Shown here one piece after another: positions 36,831-44,908 of a stretch of 64,000 nucleotides of DNA. Source of the DNA: Alphaproteobacteria bacterium. GTDB taxonomy: Bacteria; Pseudomonadota; Alphaproteobacteria; SP197. A program made the translations under genes and the position numbers. The stretch is taken from NCBI GenBank assembly GCA_965228895.1, contig OZ245842.1, positions 1,088,001-1,152,000 on the forward strand. Reading direction: 5' to 3'. Positions within the stretch are counted from its first letter, which is position 1. Every line of letters begins with the position of its first letter. The notes under the pieces are model-generated. The model did not search any database. It had not been told where the DNA came from and worked only from the letters and a program-made list of their open reading frames with translations.

Positions 36831-37017
36831 CGTAGCCCCCGGCCGAGTGAAACCTGTCAATTGCATCTTATGACCGATGTTCCTTTGAATGTCTTGAACT
36901 TCACCCATGCGATTCAAATGCCGCCATCGGATGGGCATGGGGACCGTCGCGCGCTAGAGTGATGCCCGGGCGCCGTTGGGGGACATGCGGCACAAAACGC
37001 ATCGGGGCGAAGGGGCC

Positions 37018-39375
37018 ATGACAAGTTTCAATGAATTCTGGCGGCGTGTCGGCGCGCTGCTCTTTTTGGTTGCGGTTATGGCCGTTGTTACGCCTTCGAT
37101 TGCGGTCGCGCAGACATCCGATGACGGGGTCAGTGCCGAGGATGTAAGCAACCTGCCTGAGCACCTGACGCGTGCCGACGTGCGCGACCTCATGTCGCGG
37201 CTGTCGGATGACCAGGTTCGCGATCTGCTGATCCAGCAACTCGATAAGGTGGCGGATGACGAGGCTGCGGCCACGGTCGATGCCAATGCCGTCGACAGTT
37301 TCGAGAAGGGCCTTGGCCGCCTTCGCGACGGTTCTGTCGCCATGGTTGATGCCTTGCCGCGCGTCCCCACAATCTTCGGTTTCGCGATCGACCACATGAC
37401 CGCCGGCAAGGGGCCGTCCCACGTCTGGCTGGTCCTGCTGTTCCTCGCCATCATTCTGGCGGCCGGTGCGATCGGCGAATGGTTGTTTCGCCGGCTGTTC
37501 ACCAGGCTCGGCCAGTTCGCGCACGCCGGCGCGGTCGAGACAGTGGTGCAGCGCTTGTGTGTCTTTTTACTTCGCGCCGTTATCGACCTTGTGGCGATCG
37601 CGGTCTTCGGCATCGTCGCCGTCATCGTCTTTTTCATCTTCTACCAGAACCACGAGCCGACGCGCGAAGCGATGGCGGCGGTCTTCTGGGCGGTCATCGT
37701 TGTGCGTGCGATTAATGCCGTCGCGCGAGACTTTTTCTGTCCCGGCCAGCCGGCGATCCGTGCGTTGCCGCTGAGCGACACGGTTGCCACATGGGCTTAC
37801 CGGCGTCTGGTCTGGATCGCCGGCGTTATCGTTGCCGTCTGGTATTTTGGGACGCTCCTGGTCAGCTACGGCATCAACAACGATCCGGGTCTGTCGCACG
37901 CGACAGCGGCCGTCCTGACGCTCGCCGTGCTTGGCTGGGTCGTCGTGCTGGTCTGGATCGACCGGCGCACGGTGCGCGGGTTCATGTTGTCCCATGACGG
38001 TGTGGAGGATGCCGAGCCGAGCCAGGCGCGAGCGTTTCTGGCGTCCAACTGGCATGTGCTGGCGACCTGCTACATCCTCGGTCTGTGGCTGTTCACCATG
38101 GTCGAGCGGCTGATGACCGGTCAGCCACAGGGCGTGCCCGCCGTCATCAGTCTGGCCTTGCTGCCGATCGTTCCCATGATCGACTGGCTGCTGCGCGCCG
38201 GCATCAGGCGCATGTGCGAAGGCGCCGGAAAACCCGAACCCACAACGCCGGACGACGCCGAGATCGTCGAGACGCCGGACATGATCGATGCCGAGACCCC
38301 CGAAGGCATCACGGTCGAAACGATCGAACCACAGCCGCAACCGACTGTCGCCGCCGAGACGGCCGGGCAGGCGATCGAACCGGTTCTGATCCGCAACATG
38401 CGCATTGTTCTTGGCATCATGGCGATCATTTTTCTGGCCGACCTATGGGGTCTTGATCTTGAATCGTTCCTGGTCGCGGGCCTCGGTCAGCGGATTGCCG
38501 GCGCCTTCTTCGATATCGTCGTCACACTGATCCTGGCGTCGGCTATCTGGGGCATGGTGAAGGCGACAATCCGTCACTACGCGCCGGATGACGGCATTGA
38601 TGTGCAGCAGATGGTCGAAGGCGAGATCGGTGGCGCCGGTCAGTCGCGCATCCAGACCCTGCTGCCGCTGTTGCGCAAGTTCGCCCTGGTGACCCTGGGC
38701 GTCATCGTCACGCTCGTGATCCTGTCGTCGCTGGGTGTCAGCATCGGACCGTTGATCGCCGGTGCCGGCGTTGTCGGTCTGGCCATCGGCTTTGGTGCGC
38801 AGACGCTGGTGCGCGATATCCTCTCCGGCGCTTTCTTCTTGGCCGACGATGCGTTCCGCGTCGGCGAGTACATCGATGTCGGCGTCGCCAAGGGCATGGT
38901 CGAGAAGATATCGATCCGCTCGTTCCGTCTGCGCCATCATCGCGGCGCCATCAACACCATTCCGTTCGGCGAGATCCACTCCGTCATGAACTTCAGCCGC
39001 GACTGGGTGATGATGAAACTGGAAATGCGCGTTCCCTCCGACACCGATCTCGAAAAGCTGCGCAAGGTCGTCAAGAAAGTCGGCCAGCAAATCATGGACG
39101 ATCCGGAGCTCGGCGCCCATTTGCTACAGCCGGTTAAATCCCAGGGCGTGCATCGCATGGACGATGACGGTGCGTTTGTCATCCGGATCAAATTCATGGC
39201 CAAACCGGGTGAGCAGTTCGTGTTGCGCCGCGAAGTCTTTCGGCGTGTCCAGGAGGCGTTCGCCGAGAATGGCATCAAGTTCGCGCCCAAACGCGTCATG
39301 GTCGACACGCAGGGTCACGCCACCGATGCCGATGTAGCGGCAGCAGCCGTCGCCGCTGAGCCGCCGCGGGCATGA
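37018..39375 (+). CDS. Large MscS-family mechanosensitive channel
   Basis: Many TMs; GPLIAGAGVVGLAIGFGAQTLVRD, DAFRVGEYI, NFSRDW. Confidence 0.92.
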   Translation: MTSFNEFWRRVGALLFLVAVMAVVTPSIAVAQTSDDGVSAEDVSNLPEHLTRADVRDLMSRLSDDQVRDLLIQQLDKVADDEAAATVDANAVDSFEKGLGRLRDGSVAMVDALPRVPTIFGFAIDHMTAGKGPSHVWLVLLFLAIILAAGAIGEWLFRRLFTRLGQFAHAGAVETVVQRLCVFLLRAVIDLVAIAVFGIVAVIVFFIFYQNHEPTREAMAAVFWAVIVVRAINAVARDFFCPGQPAIRALPLSDTVATWAYRRLVWIAGVIVAVWYFGTLLVSYGINNDPGLSHATAAVLTLAVLGWVVVLVWIDRRTVRGFMLSHDGVEDAEPSQARAFLASNWHVLATCYILGLWLFTMVERLMTGQPQGVPAVISLALLPIVPMIDWLLRAGIRRMCEGAGKPEPTTPDDAEIVETPDMIDAETPEGITVETIEPQPQPTVAAETAGQAIEPVLIRNMRIVLGIMAIIFLADLWGLDLESFLVAGLGQRIAGAFFDIVVTLILASAIWGMVKATIRHYAPDDGIDVQQMVEGEIGGAGQSRIQTLLPLLRKFALVTLGVIVTLVILSSLGVSIGPLIAGAGVVGLAIGFGAQTLVRDILSGAFFLADDAFRVGEYIDVGVAKGMVEKISIRSFRLRHHRGAINTIPFGEIHSVMNFSRDWVMMKLEMRVPSDTDLEKLRKVVKKVGQQIMDDPELGAHLLQPVKSQGVHRMDDDGAFVIRIKFMAKPGEQFVLRREVFRRVQEAFAENGIKFAPKRVMVDTQGHATDADVAAAAVAAEPPRA

Positions 39376-39794: not shown

Positions 39795-40241
39795 ATGGCC
39801 AACGCATTCGATCTCAACCTCATTCGTCGATGCCGGCGTGGTGTTGCCGGTCTTTCGATCGGGTTCGCCAGGGCGATCGCCGTATGCGTGGTTCTGCTGG
39901 GCTGGTCGGCGATCGACGGCCGCGCACTTGCCGATGGCTGGAACTCGATTGCTGGCGGTGATGCCACGCTAGGTCACAGACTCGTCGAAGAAAATTGCGC
40001 CAGGTGTCACGGTTCGGACCAGACAGGGCTGCTATCCGGCGGTACGACGCCGTCACAGCAGGATCTGGCTGAAATCGTGACCGATCGCCAGATTCTGGTT
40101 CGCGCCTTCTACTTCGATCGCCATCCCAGCATGCCCCGTTTTTTGTTCGGCGATTACGAGATGAACAACCTTCTCGCATACTTCGCCGAATTGCGGACCG
40201 GCAACGCCCAACAACCTTTCCCGCGTTCGTGGACCCGCTAG
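39795..40241 (+). CDS. Monoheme c-type cytochrome
   Basis: Signal-like N-terminus, CARCH heme motif, HPSMP distal Met, C-terminal NLLAYF helix. Confidence 0.8.
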   Translation: MANAFDLNLIRRCRRGVAGLSIGFARAIAVCVVLLGWSAIDGRALADGWNSIAGGDATLGHRLVEENCARCHGSDQTGLLSGGTTPSQQDLAEIVTDRQILVRAFYFDRHPSMPRFLFGDYEMNNLLAYFAELRTGNAQQPFPRSWTR

Positions 40242-40283: not shown

Positions 40284-40312
40284 TTGATGCGTGCTTGGCG
40301 GCAGGTTACCTT
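40284..40312 (+). promoter_or_regulatory. Promoter of repeat gene 1
   Basis: TTGATG-N10-GGCAGGT-TACCTT (17-nt spacer), 47 nt before ATG; same motif precedes gene 2. Confidence 0.65.
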
Positions 40313-40359
40313 GTGGTCGATGCCAGGGGATCAAACGCAGCCTTTCCAGGAGATTGATC

Positions 40360-41676
40360 ATGCCGAAGAAAGCGATCGACCGACTTCGACGTGAGGGTGA
40401 CGTGAAAGGCACGAAGCCTGGCAAAGAAGCGACCGGCGGCATTTTGCCAAGCGACCGGCGTGGACTGCTGTCGCGGGTCGGCGCTGGCCTGGCCCTCGCC
40501 CTGGGAGGTGCGCTCGGCAAGGTGATGTCATCGACGCCGGCCCATGCGCAAAACTACACCGGCATTACCGATAACGACTCTGGCGCAGCCCAGGACTCGC
40601 CGGGTTATGGCTCAGGTGGCGGCGATGGCGATGGCTACACCGGCATCACCGACAACGACTCAGGCGCAGCCCAGGATTCGCCGGGTTACGGCTCAGGCGG
40701 CGGCAATGGCTATACCGGCCTGTCGGACAACGATGCTGGCGCCAATCAGGATGCGGCAGGCTATGGCTCGGGCGGCGGCGATGGCTATACCGGCCTATCG
40801 GACAACGACGCTGGCGCCAACCAGGATGCGGCAGGCTATGGCTCGGGCGGCGGCGATGGCTATACCGGCTTGTCCGACAATGACGCTGGCGCCAACCAGG
40901 ATGCGGCAGGCTATGGCTCGGGCGGCGGCGATGGCTATACCGGCCTGTCGGACAACGACGCTGGCGCCAATCAGGATGCGGCCGGCTATGGCTCTGGAAG
41001 CGGCGACGGCTATACCGGTTTCACCGACAATGATCAGGGCACGTACCAGGACCAGGCTGGCTACGGCTCCGGCGGTGGTGACGGTTATACGGGCGTGACC
41101 GACAGCGATCAGGGAACCAATCAAGATCAGGCAGGTTATGGTTCCGGCGGTGACGGCTATACGGGTCTGACCGACAGCGACCAAGGCACGTACCAGGATC
41201 AGGCGGGCTATGGTACTGGCGGCGGTAGTGGTGATGGCTACACGGGCATCACCGACAATGATTCCGGTGCTGCCCAGGACGCACCGAACTACGGCACAGG
41301 CGGCGACGGCTATACGGGCGTAACCGACAGCGACCAAGGCACGTACCAGGATCAGGCGGGCTATGGTACTGGCGGCGGTAGTGGTGATGGCTACACGGGC
41401 ATCACCGACAGCGACCAGGGCACCTACCAAGACCAGGCGGGTTACGGCAGCGGCGGCGACGGCTATACGGGCATCACCGACAGCGATCAGGGCGCCAGCC
41501 AGGATGCCGAGGGATATGGCTCGGGCGGCGGCGGCGCCTACACCGGCATCACCGACAACGACAAGGGCGCGACGCAAGATGCCGAGGGTTATGGCCGTGG
41601 CGATGGCTACACGGGTATCACCGATAACGACAAGGGCGCTAGCCAGGACGCCGAAGGTTACGGCACCGGCGGCTAG
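40360..41676 (+). CDS. Tat-leader multi-repeat protein / candidate multi-core precursor A (15 cores)
   Basis: AGGAG RBS; PSDRRGLLSRVGAGLALALGG...AHA-Q leader, then 15 copies of YTGxxDxDxGxxQDxxGYG with Gly/Ser/Asp linkers. Confidence 0.85.
   Translation: MPKKAIDRLRREGDVKGTKPGKEATGGILPSDRRGLLSRVGAGLALALGGALGKVMSSTPAHAQNYTGITDNDSGAAQDSPGYGSGGGDGDGYTGITDNDSGAAQDSPGYGSGGGNGYTGLSDNDAGANQDAAGYGSGGGDGYTGLSDNDAGANQDAAGYGSGGGDGYTGLSDNDAGANQDAAGYGSGGGDGYTGLSDNDAGANQDAAGYGSGSGDGYTGFTDNDQGTYQDQAGYGSGGGDGYTGVTDSDQGTNQDQAGYGSGGDGYTGLTDSDQGTYQDQAGYGTGGGSGDGYTGITDNDSGAAQDAPNYGTGGDGYTGVTDSDQGTYQDQAGYGTGGGSGDGYTGITDSDQGTYQDQAGYGSGGDGYTGITDSDQGASQDAEGYGSGGGGAYTGITDNDKGATQDAEGYGRGDGYTGITDNDKGASQDAEGYGTGG
40555..41673 (+). 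repeat. Coding tandem repeat, 15 units of about 66-81 bp
   Basis: Units 3-6 are 75 bp; exact 88-bp duplication at 41170-41257 and 41323-41410. Confidence 0.95.
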
Positions 41677-41817
41677 GTCACAGGGGGTCGATCGCCTGGT
41701 TGATCTGTCGTGAGCGGCGTCTTGATTGCGCCCCGCCTAACCAATCGATCCACACGAATGCGTTGCAGCTAGCCCTTTTGCGTGCCGAACACCCCATCTC
41801 GGTGCCGTTCTAGCCGA

Positions 41818-41846
41818 TTGATGAGACCGGTTTGGCAGGTTAGCGT
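41818..41846 (+). promoter_or_regulatory. Promoter of repeat gene 2
   Basis: TTGATG-N10-GGCAGGT-TAGCGT (17-nt spacer), 46 nt before ATG. Confidence 0.65.
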
Positions 41847-41892
41847 ATGGGTGGGCACTGGGAGCATGGTGCCCGGTCTTTAGGGGGTATCG

Positions 41893-42765
41893 ATGTCCAA
41901 GCCATCAAATGGCCGGAAAAACGGTCGCGTTGTTGAGACGACAGAGAAATCAAAGCAAGGCACGAACGCCTTGGCGCCGAGCGACCGACGCGGCCTGTTG
42001 TCGCGGGTTGGTGCTGGCCTGGCCGTAGCGCTCGGTGGGTCGCTGACAAAGTTGGTGGCGCCATCATCCGCGTATGCTCAGGAATATACGGGCCTGAACG
42101 ACAACGACTCCGGCAGCGGTCAAGATGCCGCGGGCTACGGCACCGGCTACACCGGTGTCACCGACAACGACCAGGGTGCCTACCAAGACGCCGAAGGTTA
42201 CGGCGGCAGCAGCGGCGATGGTTATACCGGGTTGAGCGACAACGACGCGGGCAACAATCAGGACGCACAGGGCTACGGCACCGGCTACACCGGTGTCACC
42301 GACAACGATCAGGGCAGCTATCAGGATGCCGAGGGTTATGGCGGTAGTAGCGGCGATGGTTATACCGGGTTGAGCGACAACGATTCCGGCAACAACCAGG
42401 ACGCACAGGGCTACGGCACCGGCTACACCGGCATCACCGACAACGATCAGGGCAGCTATCAGGATGCCGAGGGTTATGGCGGTAGTAGCGGCGATGGCTA
42501 TACCGGGTTGAGCGACAACGATTCCGGCAACAACCAGGACGCACAGGGCTACGGCACCGGCTACACCGGCATCACCGACAACGATCAGGGCAGCTATCAA
42601 GATGGCGAGGGGTACGGCACTGGTGGCAGTGGCGGTTATACCGGCCTGAACGACAATGATTCCGGCAACAACCAAGACCAAGCGGGCTACGGCACCGGCT
42701 ACACGGGCATAAGCGACAACGACAAAGGCACCTACCAGGATGCCGAAGGTTATGGCGGCGGCTGA
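41893..42765 (+). CDS. Tat-leader multi-repeat protein / candidate multi-core precursor B (10 cores)
   Basis: PSDRRGLLSRVGAGLAVALGG...AYA-Q leader, then 10 cores alternating 21- and 25-aa units. Confidence 0.85.
   Translation: MSKPSNGRKNGRVVETTEKSKQGTNALAPSDRRGLLSRVGAGLAVALGGSLTKLVAPSSAYAQEYTGLNDNDSGSGQDAAGYGTGYTGVTDNDQGAYQDAEGYGGSSGDGYTGLSDNDAGNNQDAQGYGTGYTGVTDNDQGSYQDAEGYGGSSGDGYTGLSDNDSGNNQDAQGYGTGYTGITDNDQGSYQDAEGYGGSSGDGYTGLSDNDSGNNQDAQGYGTGYTGITDNDQGSYQDGEGYGTGGSGGYTGLNDNDSGNNQDQAGYGTGYTGISDNDKGTYQDAEGYGGG
42085..42762 (+). repeat. Coding tandem repeat, 10 units in a 138-bp higher-order dimer
   Basis: Alternating 63-bp and 75-bp units (last unit truncated). Confidence 0.95.
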
Positions 42766-42807
42766 TCGTCTGATTGGCGTTTGATAAAACGAAACATTCT
42801 CTGCGAG

Positions 42808-42828
42808 GTGGCACCGGTAAGGTGCCAC
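42808..42828 (+). terminator. Hairpin between precursor B and the JmjC gene (weak terminator or mRNA stabiliser)
   Basis: GTGGCACC-GGTAA-GGTGCCAC followed by GTTT. Confidence 0.45.
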
Positions 42829-42856
42829 GTTTGACCGGTGTGTTAGGCCGTCTGCA

Positions 42857-44044
42857 ATGACCGACACGTTACATTTCTCGCGACCTGCGGATGCCGTCGA
42901 CTACCTGCTGGCGCCCTGTCCGATCGCGCGGTTTACCGACGAGGTCTATGAGCGTACGCCGTTGATCATCCGGCGCGAGGAGCCGAGCCGCTATCGGGAT
43001 TTGCTGTCGATCGAAGCGATTGACCGCCTGGTCGCTGAGGTCGAACTGCGTGGCGATACGCTTCAGATCGTGCGCGCGAAGCCAAGAATCGCGCCACGCG
43101 ACTACACGCTCTCCAACGGCATCGTCGATCCCATCCGGTTGGCGGACTTCTACGCGGACGGCGCGACGATCATCCTGAACCAGTTGCAGCGCCTGCACGC
43201 CCCGCTGGACCGTCTGACACGGGCGTTGGAGGCTGCGTTCAGCGCGCAGTTCCAGACCAATGTCTATCTGACGCCGGCGACCGGGCAGGGCTTCCCGGTG
43301 CATTTCGACAACCACGATGTCATCGTCCTGCAGGTCGAAGGCAGCAAGGCATGGCGTCTCTATGAAGCGCCGATCCACCTGGTCTATCGCGGCGAGCGAT
43401 TCGAACCCGGCGCCTATGATCCCGGCGAAACGACCGACAGTTTCACGCTCAACGCCGGCGACGCGCTCTATATTCCGCGCGGCCAAATGCACGAGGCGGC
43501 CGGTAACGAGCATGGCCCCTCGCTTCACATCACCGTCGGCATCATCACCAAGACGTGGACCGACCTGATCCTGGAAGCGGTTGCCGGCGTCGCGCTCGAC
43601 GATCCGGACTTCCGGCGCAGTCTGCCGCTCGGGTTCGCTCATGCCAGTGCCGATCTCGACGCGATGCGCACGACATTCGACGACTTGATGGCCAGACTAG
43701 CTGACAACGCCACGATGGACCCCGCGCTGGCGGTTCTGCGCGACGACTTTGTCCGCCGACGCCGGCCCCATATCGACGGCGCGGTTCTGGCGCCACGTCC
43801 GCCGGTCGAGGCGACCACACGGCTCGTCGCACGGCCCAGCCTGGTGTGGCGCTTGGCTCAGGATGAGAAGGGGTTGGAGCTGTTGGCCAACGGGCGCACG
43901 CTGCGATTTCCCGCTGAAGACCGCGACGCGTTGGAATTGGCGCTGTCCGGTGAGCCGTTTACGGCCGGCGACCTACCAAACAAGCGAGCGCTTGAGCTCG
44001 CCCGTCACCTCGTCAACAGTGTTCTCGTGACGCCAGTGGCCTAA
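42857..44044 (+). CDS. JmjC/Cupin_4 Fe(II)/2-oxoglutarate protein hydroxylase (NO66/MINA53/YcfD-like)
   Basis: TNVYLTP..GQGFPVHFDNHDVIVLQVEGSKAWRLY, GDALYIPRGQMHEA (HxD...H triad), SLHITVG, winged-helix-like C-terminus. Confidence 0.9.
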   Translation: MTDTLHFSRPADAVDYLLAPCPIARFTDEVYERTPLIIRREEPSRYRDLLSIEAIDRLVAEVELRGDTLQIVRAKPRIAPRDYTLSNGIVDPIRLADFYADGATIILNQLQRLHAPLDRLTRALEAAFSAQFQTNVYLTPATGQGFPVHFDNHDVIVLQVEGSKAWRLYEAPIHLVYRGERFEPGAYDPGETTDSFTLNAGDALYIPRGQMHEAAGNEHGPSLHITVGIITKTWTDLILEAVAGVALDDPDFRRSLPLGFAHASADLDAMRTTFDDLMARLADNATMDPALAVLRDDFVRRRRPHIDGAVLAPRPPVEATTRLVARPSLVWRLAQDEKGLELLANGRTLRFPAEDRDALELALSGEPFTAGDLPNKRALELARHLVNSVLVTPVA

Positions 44045-44047
44045 ACC

Positions 44048-44908
44048 TTACCGGCCGGCGGTACCCGTGCCGCCGGACCATGTGGCGTCGCCGCCTTCGA
44101 AGTAGTAGGCGCTTTGCTCGTCGCTGATGCGTTGCCAGGCGGCGATCGCTTCGGGCGTCAGATCCCCCTGAGGCCGGGGCATCGGTTGAAAGTGGCCGTC
44201 TTTGTCGTGGCCGCGGACCACGGTAGCGTAGTCGCGGTCGCCCTTTGTCTGGCGCGCGCTGGGCGCGAGGAAACGCATGGCAAGACCGATGCGTCGCTGG
44301 TCGGACCGGTTGGGTTCGGAGGCATGCAGCGTCAGGCCGTGATGGATCGACATCTCGCCTGCCTTTAGCGGGCCGGCGATCGCTTGTGACTCATCAATAC
44401 CGTCGCGCACAGTCTGTCCACGGGTCAGCAGGTTGGTGTCGGCATGGGTGTCGACGTGTTCCAACAGGCCGCGTTGGTGGGACCCAGGCAGAAATCGCAT
44501 GCAACCCATTTCGCCGGTCGCCGGTGACAGCGCCAGCCAGGCGGTGAAGCTCTCCAAAGGCTCGATGCCCATGTAGCGGAGATCCTGGTGCCAGCTTATG
44601 TAGCCCGGTGTGTTCGGCTCTTTGATGATGAGGTCGCTGTCCCACAGCAGAATGTCGGGACCAATCAACGACTCCATGACGTCGACGACACGGGCGTCGT
44701 GGACCAGGTCATCGACTGGCGTGAAGACAACGTGCGCGGCAGTCCGGCGGAACTCAGCGAGCGGCAGGTCGTCGGGGGCATCCCGTTCGATCGTTTCCAG
44801 GCGTTCGCGCATGCGCGCCGCGTCGGTTTCATCCAACACGTCGACAGGCGCCAGAAATCCGTCACGCGCGAAGCTTTCGGTTTGTTCGGTTGAGAGGGAT
44901 CCCGTCAT
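44048..44908 (-). CDS. Phytanoyl-CoA dioxygenase (PhyH) family Fe/2OG enzyme
   Basis: WHQD, TAWLAL, FLPGSH, HHGLTLHASEPN, RRIG. Confidence 0.9.
   Translation of the reverse strand: MTGSLSTEQTESFARDGFLAPVDVLDETDAARMRERLETIERDAPDDLPLAEFRRTAAHVVFTPVDDLVHDARVVDVMESLIGPDILLWDSDLIIKEPNTPGYISWHQDLRYMGIEPLESFTAWLALSPATGEMGCMRFLPGSHQRGLLEHVDTHADTNLLTRGQTVRDGIDESQAIAGPLKAGEMSIHHGLTLHASEPNRSDQRRIGLAMRFLAPSARQTKGDRDYATVVRGHDKDGHFQPMPRPQGDLTPEAIAAWQRISDEQSAYYFEGGDATWSGGTGTAGR

Follow-up and report, generated by a model that had tools for sequence, protein, structure and literature searches.

Within a 64,000-nucleotide stretch of an alphaproteobacterial genome (contig OZ245842.1; hereafter the window), two consecutive genes, here called A and B, encode acidic repeat proteins with leaders of the twin-arginine translocation (Tat) type, and a third gene directly behind them encodes a JmjC oxygenase resembling NO66 and MINA53. 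Since the adjacency of such repeat genes and JmjC genes recurs across lineages and both parts co-occur at the genome level, our comparison supports the view that they form a functional unit, apparently a broadly distributed two-gene module. We consider it rather likely that A and B are substrates of the adjacent enzyme, which would hydroxylate them in the cytoplasm before they leave through the Tat pathway and serve as intact proteins of the cell envelope. The three open reading frames (ORFs) listed for this region are:

40360..41676, forward strand: gene A, 438 aa, with a leader of twin-arginine type and 15 repeat units (listed as ORF 40291..41676)
41893..42765, forward strand: gene B, 290 aa, with a leader of twin-arginine type and 10 repeat units
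42857..44044, forward strand: NO66/MINA53-like JmjC Fe(II)/2-oxoglutarate (2OG) oxygenase of ribosomal oxygenase (ROX) type, 395 aa, PF08007, predicted cytoplasmic

A regular expression for the 19-residue core, YTG[ILVF][TSN]D[NS]DxGxxQDxx[GN]YG, found 15 copies in A and 10 in B, the numbers already given in a preliminary description made from the DNA letters. Linkers of 2–8 Gly, Ser and Asp residues separate the units, and the arrays are visible in the DNA with periods of 63–153 bases (Tandem Repeats Finder). The unit pattern is far from chance, because A and B are the only two among 69,040 ORFs of the window's genome (stop-to-stop ORFs of at least 45 aa; 5.53 Mb) that contain at least three units. 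Both mature proteins are strongly acidic, with a net charge of -0.155 per residue in A and -0.167 in B; Tyr accounts for about 9–11% of residues and Arg and Lys are almost absent, the Arg of A being confined to one linker. When B was compared with its orthologue from a sister species of the same genus, 30, 23 and 97 base differences were found at codon positions 1, 2 and 3; of the 290 codons, 84 had changed synonymously and 39 non-synonymously. Because these differences pile up at the third position, the comparison indicates that A and B are real genes under purifying selection in the annotated frame. Gene A probably starts at ATG 40360 and not at GTG 40291, since AGGAG lies 7 bases upstream of this ATG and the orthologue in genome G001 also begins with M-I-M-PKK. 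Long open frames antisense to the arrays (window 40795-41577 and 42064-42867, both on the reverse strand) are by-products of repetitive, GC-rich coding sequence and not genes.

The gene behind B is separated from it by 91 bp (42766-42856) on the same strand. Its product matches PF08007 (JmjC_2) with 90 bits (cut-off 22, E = 1.1e-25) and has neither a hydrophobic N-terminus nor a signal peptide. H149, D151, K164 and H212 are invariant in 18 aligned sequences, and the triad H149/D151/H212 together with K164 aligns with the NO66 motifs PHYDD, EGRKLW and PRGFIH, which we take to be the metal- and 2OG-binding residues. We compared a profile of the window JmjC and 17 relatives with the PDB. It matched human NO66 at 2.7e-46, MINA53 at 1.5e-41 and Bacillus subtilis YxbC at about 2e-21, but Escherichia coli YcfD at only about 1e-4, so that the enzyme is much nearer to the eukaryotic proteins than to YcfD. 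The AlphaFold2 (AF2) model (predicted local distance difference test, pLDDT, 82.1) contains double-stranded beta-helix strands up to residue 230, then helices (234-302) and, at 323-393, a C-terminal beta-beta-beta-alpha-alpha domain; in a Foldseek search NO66 chains rank first (E = 9.4e-28, about 450 columns aligned). As modelled, the protein has the three-domain layout of ribosomal oxygenases, namely a double-stranded beta-helix, a helical dimerisation domain and a winged helix (PMC4295552; papers are cited here and below for the accessible part of their text). By its profile and model matches the enzyme belongs to the NO66/MINA53/YcfD group and is NO66/MINA53-like, and the position, missing signal peptide and enzyme clade given in the preliminary description are borne out.

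A single-protein locus search with the JmjC protein returned one close relative of 92% identity. The net charge of the window JmjC is -13, compared with a median of -18.5 (range -29 to -5) in 44 relatives with ordinary repeats, and this comparison gave no useful sign of charge co-evolution between JmjC and repeats. Prediction of a complex of JmjC, Fe and residues 1-131 of protein B scored 0.02, a result that has no bearing on whether they bind. The window's family also has a second JmjC clade, which is more distant (267–297 bits; L232, L231, G001:C111:19795-20961 and G002:C15:66321-67499) and is missing from the window's own genome; in L232 (1164-1466, forward strand), the small ORF that precedes this distant JmjC gene encodes an 'LALTDEQIV' box, the motif RRRVLG and a strongly acidic tail of Asp and Glu.

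We then turn to the genomic linkage of the two parts. The JmjC set comprised the best 80 of 571 confirmed relatives from a scan of one genome per species and 8 loci from genome searches; 85 of the 88 loci were scored, and three without a profile match on an ORF of at least 200 aa were dropped. An ORF with at least three units lay within 2.5 kb of the JmjC relative at 46 of 85 loci, a count that includes kin genomes and hence overstates the number of independent events. Split by JmjC profile score, linkage was found at 38 of 50 loci with at least 440 bits, at 6 of 14 with 300–440 bits and at 2 of 21 below 300 bits. The linked repeat ORFs were mostly upstream on the same strand (35, versus 9 convergent and 2 otherwise) and mostly no more than about 170 bases away from the JmjC gene. 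For ORFs of this kind, the background in the window's genome is 0.002 per 6.2 kb. A Tat motif combined with an Asp content of at least 10% proved unspecific as a criterion (381 ORFs in the window's genome, 0.43 expected per 6.2 kb); therefore only ORFs with at least three units and cases read by eye were counted.

A quick maximum-likelihood tree was calculated from 84 near-full-length JmjC rows, including the window and two genus relatives (midpoint root, no outgroup). A split with 99% support unites the window's clade with 54 others, giving 57 rows, and 44 of these have a neighbour with at least three units. Six rows from Gammaproteobacteria instead have proteins with a Tat leader and the shorter unit (T/S)DSSDQSGR, two have flanks too short to score, and for the neighbourless L089 and L220 the repeat gene lies elsewhere in the genome (L102, on another contig of the same metagenome-assembled genome (MAG), and L117 in G063, respectively). 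Judged by record titles, carriers of the pairing are found in Caulobacterales, Sphingomonadales, Hyphomonadaceae/Maricaulaceae, Rhodobacterales, Gammaproteobacteria and Myxococcota, and cultivable carriers include Brevundimonas denitrificans NBRC 110107, Parasphingopyxis lamellibrachiae DSM 26725 and Oceanicaulis alexandrii ac9. In a set of 61 genomes related to that of the window, a profile of 16 repeat proteins of the wider family (A2) and a JmjC of at least 600 bits were found together in the same three genomes and nowhere else; these are three species of the window's genus.

Some JmjC relatives have neighbours of another kind. In Actinoplanes and Paractinoplanes (L094:5378-5923 and L097:5666-5962), a relative of about 35% identity follows an ORF without Tat motif in which GPADGGANPGGHDGGADGSAE occurs three times and an 'L(N/S)DDDIT' box is present; its product may be another type of substrate of this enzyme family. 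In a Steroidobacteraceae MAG (L062:5465-5896), the ORF directly upstream of the JmjC relative has a Tat leader, an 'LTDDQIT' box and about nine DPDKV[KRQ] units.

The repeats themselves belong to a larger family. A word-indexed search with B returned 10 proteins with the related unit TG[IV]TDSDxGxxADPxGxGRG behind RRSFL-type leaders, and the usual family unit reads [ST]G[IVL]TDSDxGxxADPxGxGRG. Of the 141 distinct repeat ORFs of the fetched loci, 130 have a twin-arginine motif and 3–13 units each. Across 420 long-form units from these ORFs, conservation at the free positions of the unit is strong: position 2 is Gly in 89%, position 3 is Ile, Val or Leu, and position 4 is Thr in 94%; Ala is found in 84% at position 12, Pro in 80% at position 14 and Arg, within G-R-G, in 96% at position 19, while position 17 may hold R, N, Y, Q or H. 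The A2 profile matches A at E = 8.3e-23 and B at E = 8.8e-23, and in a search of 1.84 billion representatives (50% identity) it found 752 proteins at E ≤ 1e-3 and 443 at E ≤ 1e-10. The candidate new system of the preliminary description is not isolated and is better read as a divergent, Arg-free and very acidic branch of this wider family, to judge from these profile matches. Proteins A and B stand out by the largest number of units seen (15), by G-Y-G-S/T in place of G-x-G-R-G and by a Gln before the third Asp where the family has Ala; no form of the family was seen that is more extreme than that of the window's genus, with 15 units, no Arg and many Tyr.

As the preliminary description had stated, no described family could be recognised. 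Pfam gave no family for A and B at E ≤ 0.01 and no known repeat family for seven relatives at E ≤ 0.1; calcium-binding repeats of the RTX, TSP type 3 and EF-hand types were not matched in A, B or relatives, and no PDB chain is related to the repeats. NCBIfam holds no model for them and recognises only the Tat signal in some relatives, the one NCBI label found being 'twin-arginine translocation signal domain-containing protein', and ESM Atlas neighbours are unnamed Pseudomonadota clusters only. A literature search, with supplements and subscription journals outside its scope, yielded neither a description of the pair or the repeat family nor a bacterial NO66-type enzyme with a protein substrate other than a ribosomal one.

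In some family members the repeats are joined to other domains: a C-terminal PG_binding_1 (P0002, P0004), Trypsin_2 (P0262) or an unannotated globular C-terminal domain of about 190 aa (P0153, P0234). Because of these fusions, we regard the repeats as a protein module of the envelope and not as a source of small peptides, and the cutting into peptides considered in the preliminary description becomes less likely. Units bracketed by Cys were found in 48 of 141 relatives, which suggests that each unit forms a loop. In 12 of the 130 repeat ORFs bearing twin arginines, a conserved 'TL(T/S/N)D-x-(D/E)-I' box precedes the arginines by 3–25 residues, mainly in members from Myxococcota and Rhodobacterales (carriers within L022-L179, e.g. 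L079, L112, L125, L126, L130, L142, L154 and L158); this box could be a recognition element.

Export by the Tat pathway is proposed because A and B have twin-arginine leaders and the window's genome encodes tatC (176.9 bits). The two leaders are near-identical: they share SDRRGLLSRVGAG...LGG, align as ...SDRRGLLSRVGAGLA.ALGG..., contain the twin-arginine motif SDRRGLL and end in AHA or AYA followed by Q. The Tat-signal model TIGR01409 was passed by two of seven scanned relatives (P0007 and L039).

These observations lead us to the following scheme. In the cytoplasm, the JmjC protein would use Fe(II), 2OG and O2 to hydroxylate one or more residues per unit, the likeliest target being Asp, either in the ...D-x-x-G... 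half (its D) or in T-D-x-D (its D/N). A precedent is given by the PF08007 enzymes PhaI (PMC8784127) and BipG (PMC12707348), whose hydroxylation substrates are peptides of ribosomal origin. The hydrophobic stretch [ST]-G-[IVL]-T of each unit may act as a built-in recognition strand and, more speculatively, could dock on the C-terminal winged-helix domain of the enzyme, which resembles a recognition element (RRE) of ribosomally made, post-translationally modified peptides (RiPPs); RRE-like folds fused to PF08007 domains have been reported (PMC12710340). The modified protein would then leave via the Tat pathway, its signal peptide would be cut after AHA or AYA, and the intact protein would present a polyvalent array of acidic loops in the cell envelope, probably binding cations. 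Since the enzyme is predicted to be cytoplasmic and needs O2, Fe(II) and 2OG, modification would have to precede export, and we think that the enzyme probably acts on the repeats at this stage. No side chain other than Asp recurs in every unit variant seen (TDSDxGxxADPxG, TDSDPSDPxG, TNSDPGDRPG, TDSSDQSG and the window's TDNDxGxxQDxxG), and the ...D-x-x-G half is the most constant; for these reasons we favour beta-hydroxy-Asp as the product. Cation binding by the Asp triads is plausible from their composition. As a more tentative proposal, which we hold to be somewhat improbable as a whole, the pair would represent an undescribed, widespread class in which a NO66-type JmjC enzyme, of a type known to date from ribosomal proteins and from RiPP ornithine alone, adds many beta-hydroxy-Asp residues to Tat-exported repeats, giving a periplasmic poly-(alpha-hydroxycarboxylate) polymer that binds or buffers Fe3+, Ca2+, Mn2+ or lanthanides.

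Several results weigh against this scheme, beginning with the inflated linkage counts mentioned above. In a reverse search from the repeats, which used a DNA pattern for the common unit and yielded 78 new loci, a JmjC homologue was present in the same block (at most 8 kb) at 28 loci and absent from it at 50, so that adjacency is not obligatory. These 50 loci have no other common neighbour, and all 10 genomes sampled from them encode the JmjC subfamily elsewhere (322–654 bits). At the genome level, the co-occurrence check suggested in the preliminary description, which took repeat proteins and JmjC as one system, turned out in favour of the pairing, both in these 10 genomes and in the 3 of 61 related genomes that hold both parts. 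The leaders of A and B reach no NCBIfam model at E ≤ 0.01, TIGR01409 included, and the Tat assignment accordingly draws on SDRRGLL and on the relatives. Furthermore, the AF2 model of protein B is of low confidence (pLDDT 44.5), with weak strands at each YTGxTD, and thus gives no support to a folded form of the protein that could account for export by Tat. We know of no hydroxylation of Asp by NO66, MINA53, YcfD, PhaI or BipG. The described NO66, MINA53 and YcfD enzymes hydroxylate His or Arg (PMC4295552), and the PF08007 enzymes PhaI (PMC8784127) and BipG (PMC12707348) hydroxylate ornithine in ribosomally made peptides. Finally, the Arg of G-R-G, so highly conserved in the common unit, is absent from the window's units and could be the usual target.

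The last points also bear on a first alternative, that the JmjC protein modifies the repeats but with another target or chemistry: Arg in G-R-G units, Tyr, Asn or Thr in the window's units, or a different 2OG-oxygenase reaction. Besides the conserved Arg and the Arg- or His-directed activity of known ROX enzymes (PMC4295552), the variable position 17 and the G-Y-G retained in the window's units fit this alternative. However, the window's clade has an intact enzyme although its units lack Arg, and Arg is missing from other variants as well, such as the ESTDSxDQTGGE units in L053. We regard another target or chemistry as unlikely, though as the most probable of the alternatives considered here.

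According to a second alternative, A and B are multi-core RiPP precursors: the JmjC protein would modify the 19-aa cores, and an unlinked protease would cut out small peptides bearing the hydroxyl groups, such as released chelators of siderophore type. The RiPP plan is matched by numerous near-identical cores between variable linkers, a common leader and a modifying enzyme next door (91 bp away on the same strand, and linked at 46 of 85 loci), and the Cys-bracketed units of relatives could yield cyclic peptides. PF08007 enzymes do work in RiPP pathways: PhaI (phaeornamide) and BipG (biphenomycin) share with the window system a JmjC_2 protein and a ribosomal precursor in one cluster (PMC8784127, PMC12707348). 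They modify ornithine in a single core, their clusters include arginase, protease and transporter, and the leader is short or of NHLP type, whereas the window system has two components only, a Tat leader and, within the family, 3–15 repeats. A dedicated protease or exporter that would release a small peptide was not found: at 60 JmjC loci and 45 repeat loci, no protease, transporter, second enzyme or further maturase is conserved beside the pair, and only JmjC recurs across lineages, in keeping with the lack of such neighbours in the preliminary description. Moreover, the Gly/Ser/Asp linkers of A and B have no obvious cleavage motif, the proteins are as long as 290 and 438 aa, and the fusions to PG_binding_1 or Trypsin_2 fit a protein module. 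We judge this alternative to be slightly less probable still. That the genes are coincidental neighbours, the JmjC protein being a housekeeping ribosomal oxygenase and the repeat proteins unrelated envelope proteins, is very improbable: relatives bear the names 'ribosomal protein L16 Arg81 hydroxylase' or 'NO66' in their sources and no second ROX-type gene was found in the window's genome (second-best match 29 bits), but the patchy distribution of the enzyme (3 of 61 relatives, all in the window's genus) and its conserved pairing with repeat proteins, by adjacency and genome-level co-occurrence across distant lineages, disfavour a ribosomal role.

Returning to hydroxylated, Tat-exported envelope proteins, we compared this proposal with known systems. 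The closest enzymes, NO66 and MINA53 of eukaryotes and YcfD/RoxA of bacteria, share PF08007, the HxD...H triad, the 2OG Lys and three domains with the window JmjC (PMC4295552). These ribosomal oxygenases act on a single His or Arg in ribosomal proteins, whereas the presumed partner in the window is an exported, Asp-rich multi-repeat protein next door. FIH (factor inhibiting HIF) is a JmjC hydroxylase of Asn, Asp or His in many ankyrin-repeat copies, and the PDB titles returned by Foldseek include an FIH complex with an Asp substrate. However, FIH is of Cupin_8 type and distant from the window model (Foldseek E about 1e-7, template modelling score 0.35), and its substrates are folded cytosolic repeats, while those of the window are predicted to be exported. 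Likewise, the His-Xaa-Ser repeat protein HxsA is presumed to be modified many times, by co-encoded radical SAM maturases, and like P0002 it has a C-terminal peptidoglycan-binding domain, through which P0002 matches TIGR03979; repeats, enzymes and chemistry all differ, so that the likeness is one of logic only.

In bufferins, a cytoplasmic iron enzyme modifies a precursor with a signal for export, and the product serves as a metal binder of the periplasm (PMC12452194). Bufferins differ from the window system by an MNIO/DUF692 enzyme with a partner protein, Cys-derived modifications, Sec signals and a single core. The 2OG oxygenases CinX and AspH (aspartyl/asparaginyl beta-hydroxylase) form beta-hydroxy-Asp in loops that are rich in Asp, bind cations or are closed by disulfides. 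CinX acts on cinnamycin. AspH acts on calcium-binding EGF domains (PMC6817910). Neither is a JmjC_2 protein; both have other folds or belong to other families, and no sequence relation to either part of the window system was found. JmjC protein hydroxylases, PF08007 enzymes in RiPP pathways and modified peptides with signal peptides are thus already known, and the pairing, the repeat family and a non-ribosomal protein substrate of a bacterial NO66-type enzyme would be new as far as we searched.

If the proposal is correct, a protein substrate other than a ribosomal one would for the first time be known for NO66-type oxygenases in bacteria, and a repeat family of 752 representatives, at most labelled by its Tat signal, would become defined. 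The pair would show how, with no more than two genes, a secreted protein can be given many hydroxyl groups, and would be a direct handle on the coordination of cytoplasmic modification with Tat export; it could also yield encoded metal-binding polymers. The pairing is easily tested in E. coli by mass spectrometry.

Apart from the three genes, the region contains the following features:

40284..40316, forward strand: promoter-like block TTGATG-N17-TACCTT upstream of A, 76 bases before ATG 40360
41818..41850, forward strand: promoter-like block repeated upstream of B as TTGATG-N17-TAGCGT, 75 bases before ATG 41893
42808..42828, forward strand: perfect 8-bp stem-loop in the spacer between B and JmjC, present in the minimum free energy and centroid folds

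Alignment of the regions upstream of A and B revealed the common block TTGATG-N17-TA(C/G)C(T/G)T. The common leader and promoter of the preliminary description hold as to the near-identical leaders and the duplicated block, but a consensus promoter scan gave 0 sites at either block, so that a promoter role is putative. The stem-loop behind B may be an attenuator or a stabiliser of the mRNA 3' end; the folding z-score of the whole spacer is only -1.31, and terminator-like matches on the forward strand are weak.

Convergent to the JmjC gene, with 3 bases between the stop codons, lies a gene for a PhyH-family Fe/2OG dioxygenase (window 44048-44908, reverse strand; PF05721, E = 3e-31). It is kept in two sister species (L010, L011) and is not found beside JmjC relatives of other lineages. 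Directly 5' of A, a gene for a small c-type cytochrome (window 39795-40241, forward strand) contains CxxCH, has weak Cytochrome_CBB3 and Cytochrom_C matches and is kept within the genus (L010, L012). Both were considered as parts of the system and rejected, as they are conserved in the genus only. Further upstream, a gene for a mechanosensitive channel of MscS type (window 36976-39375, forward strand), whose 799-aa product has a long extension at its N-terminus, is syntenic in the genus.

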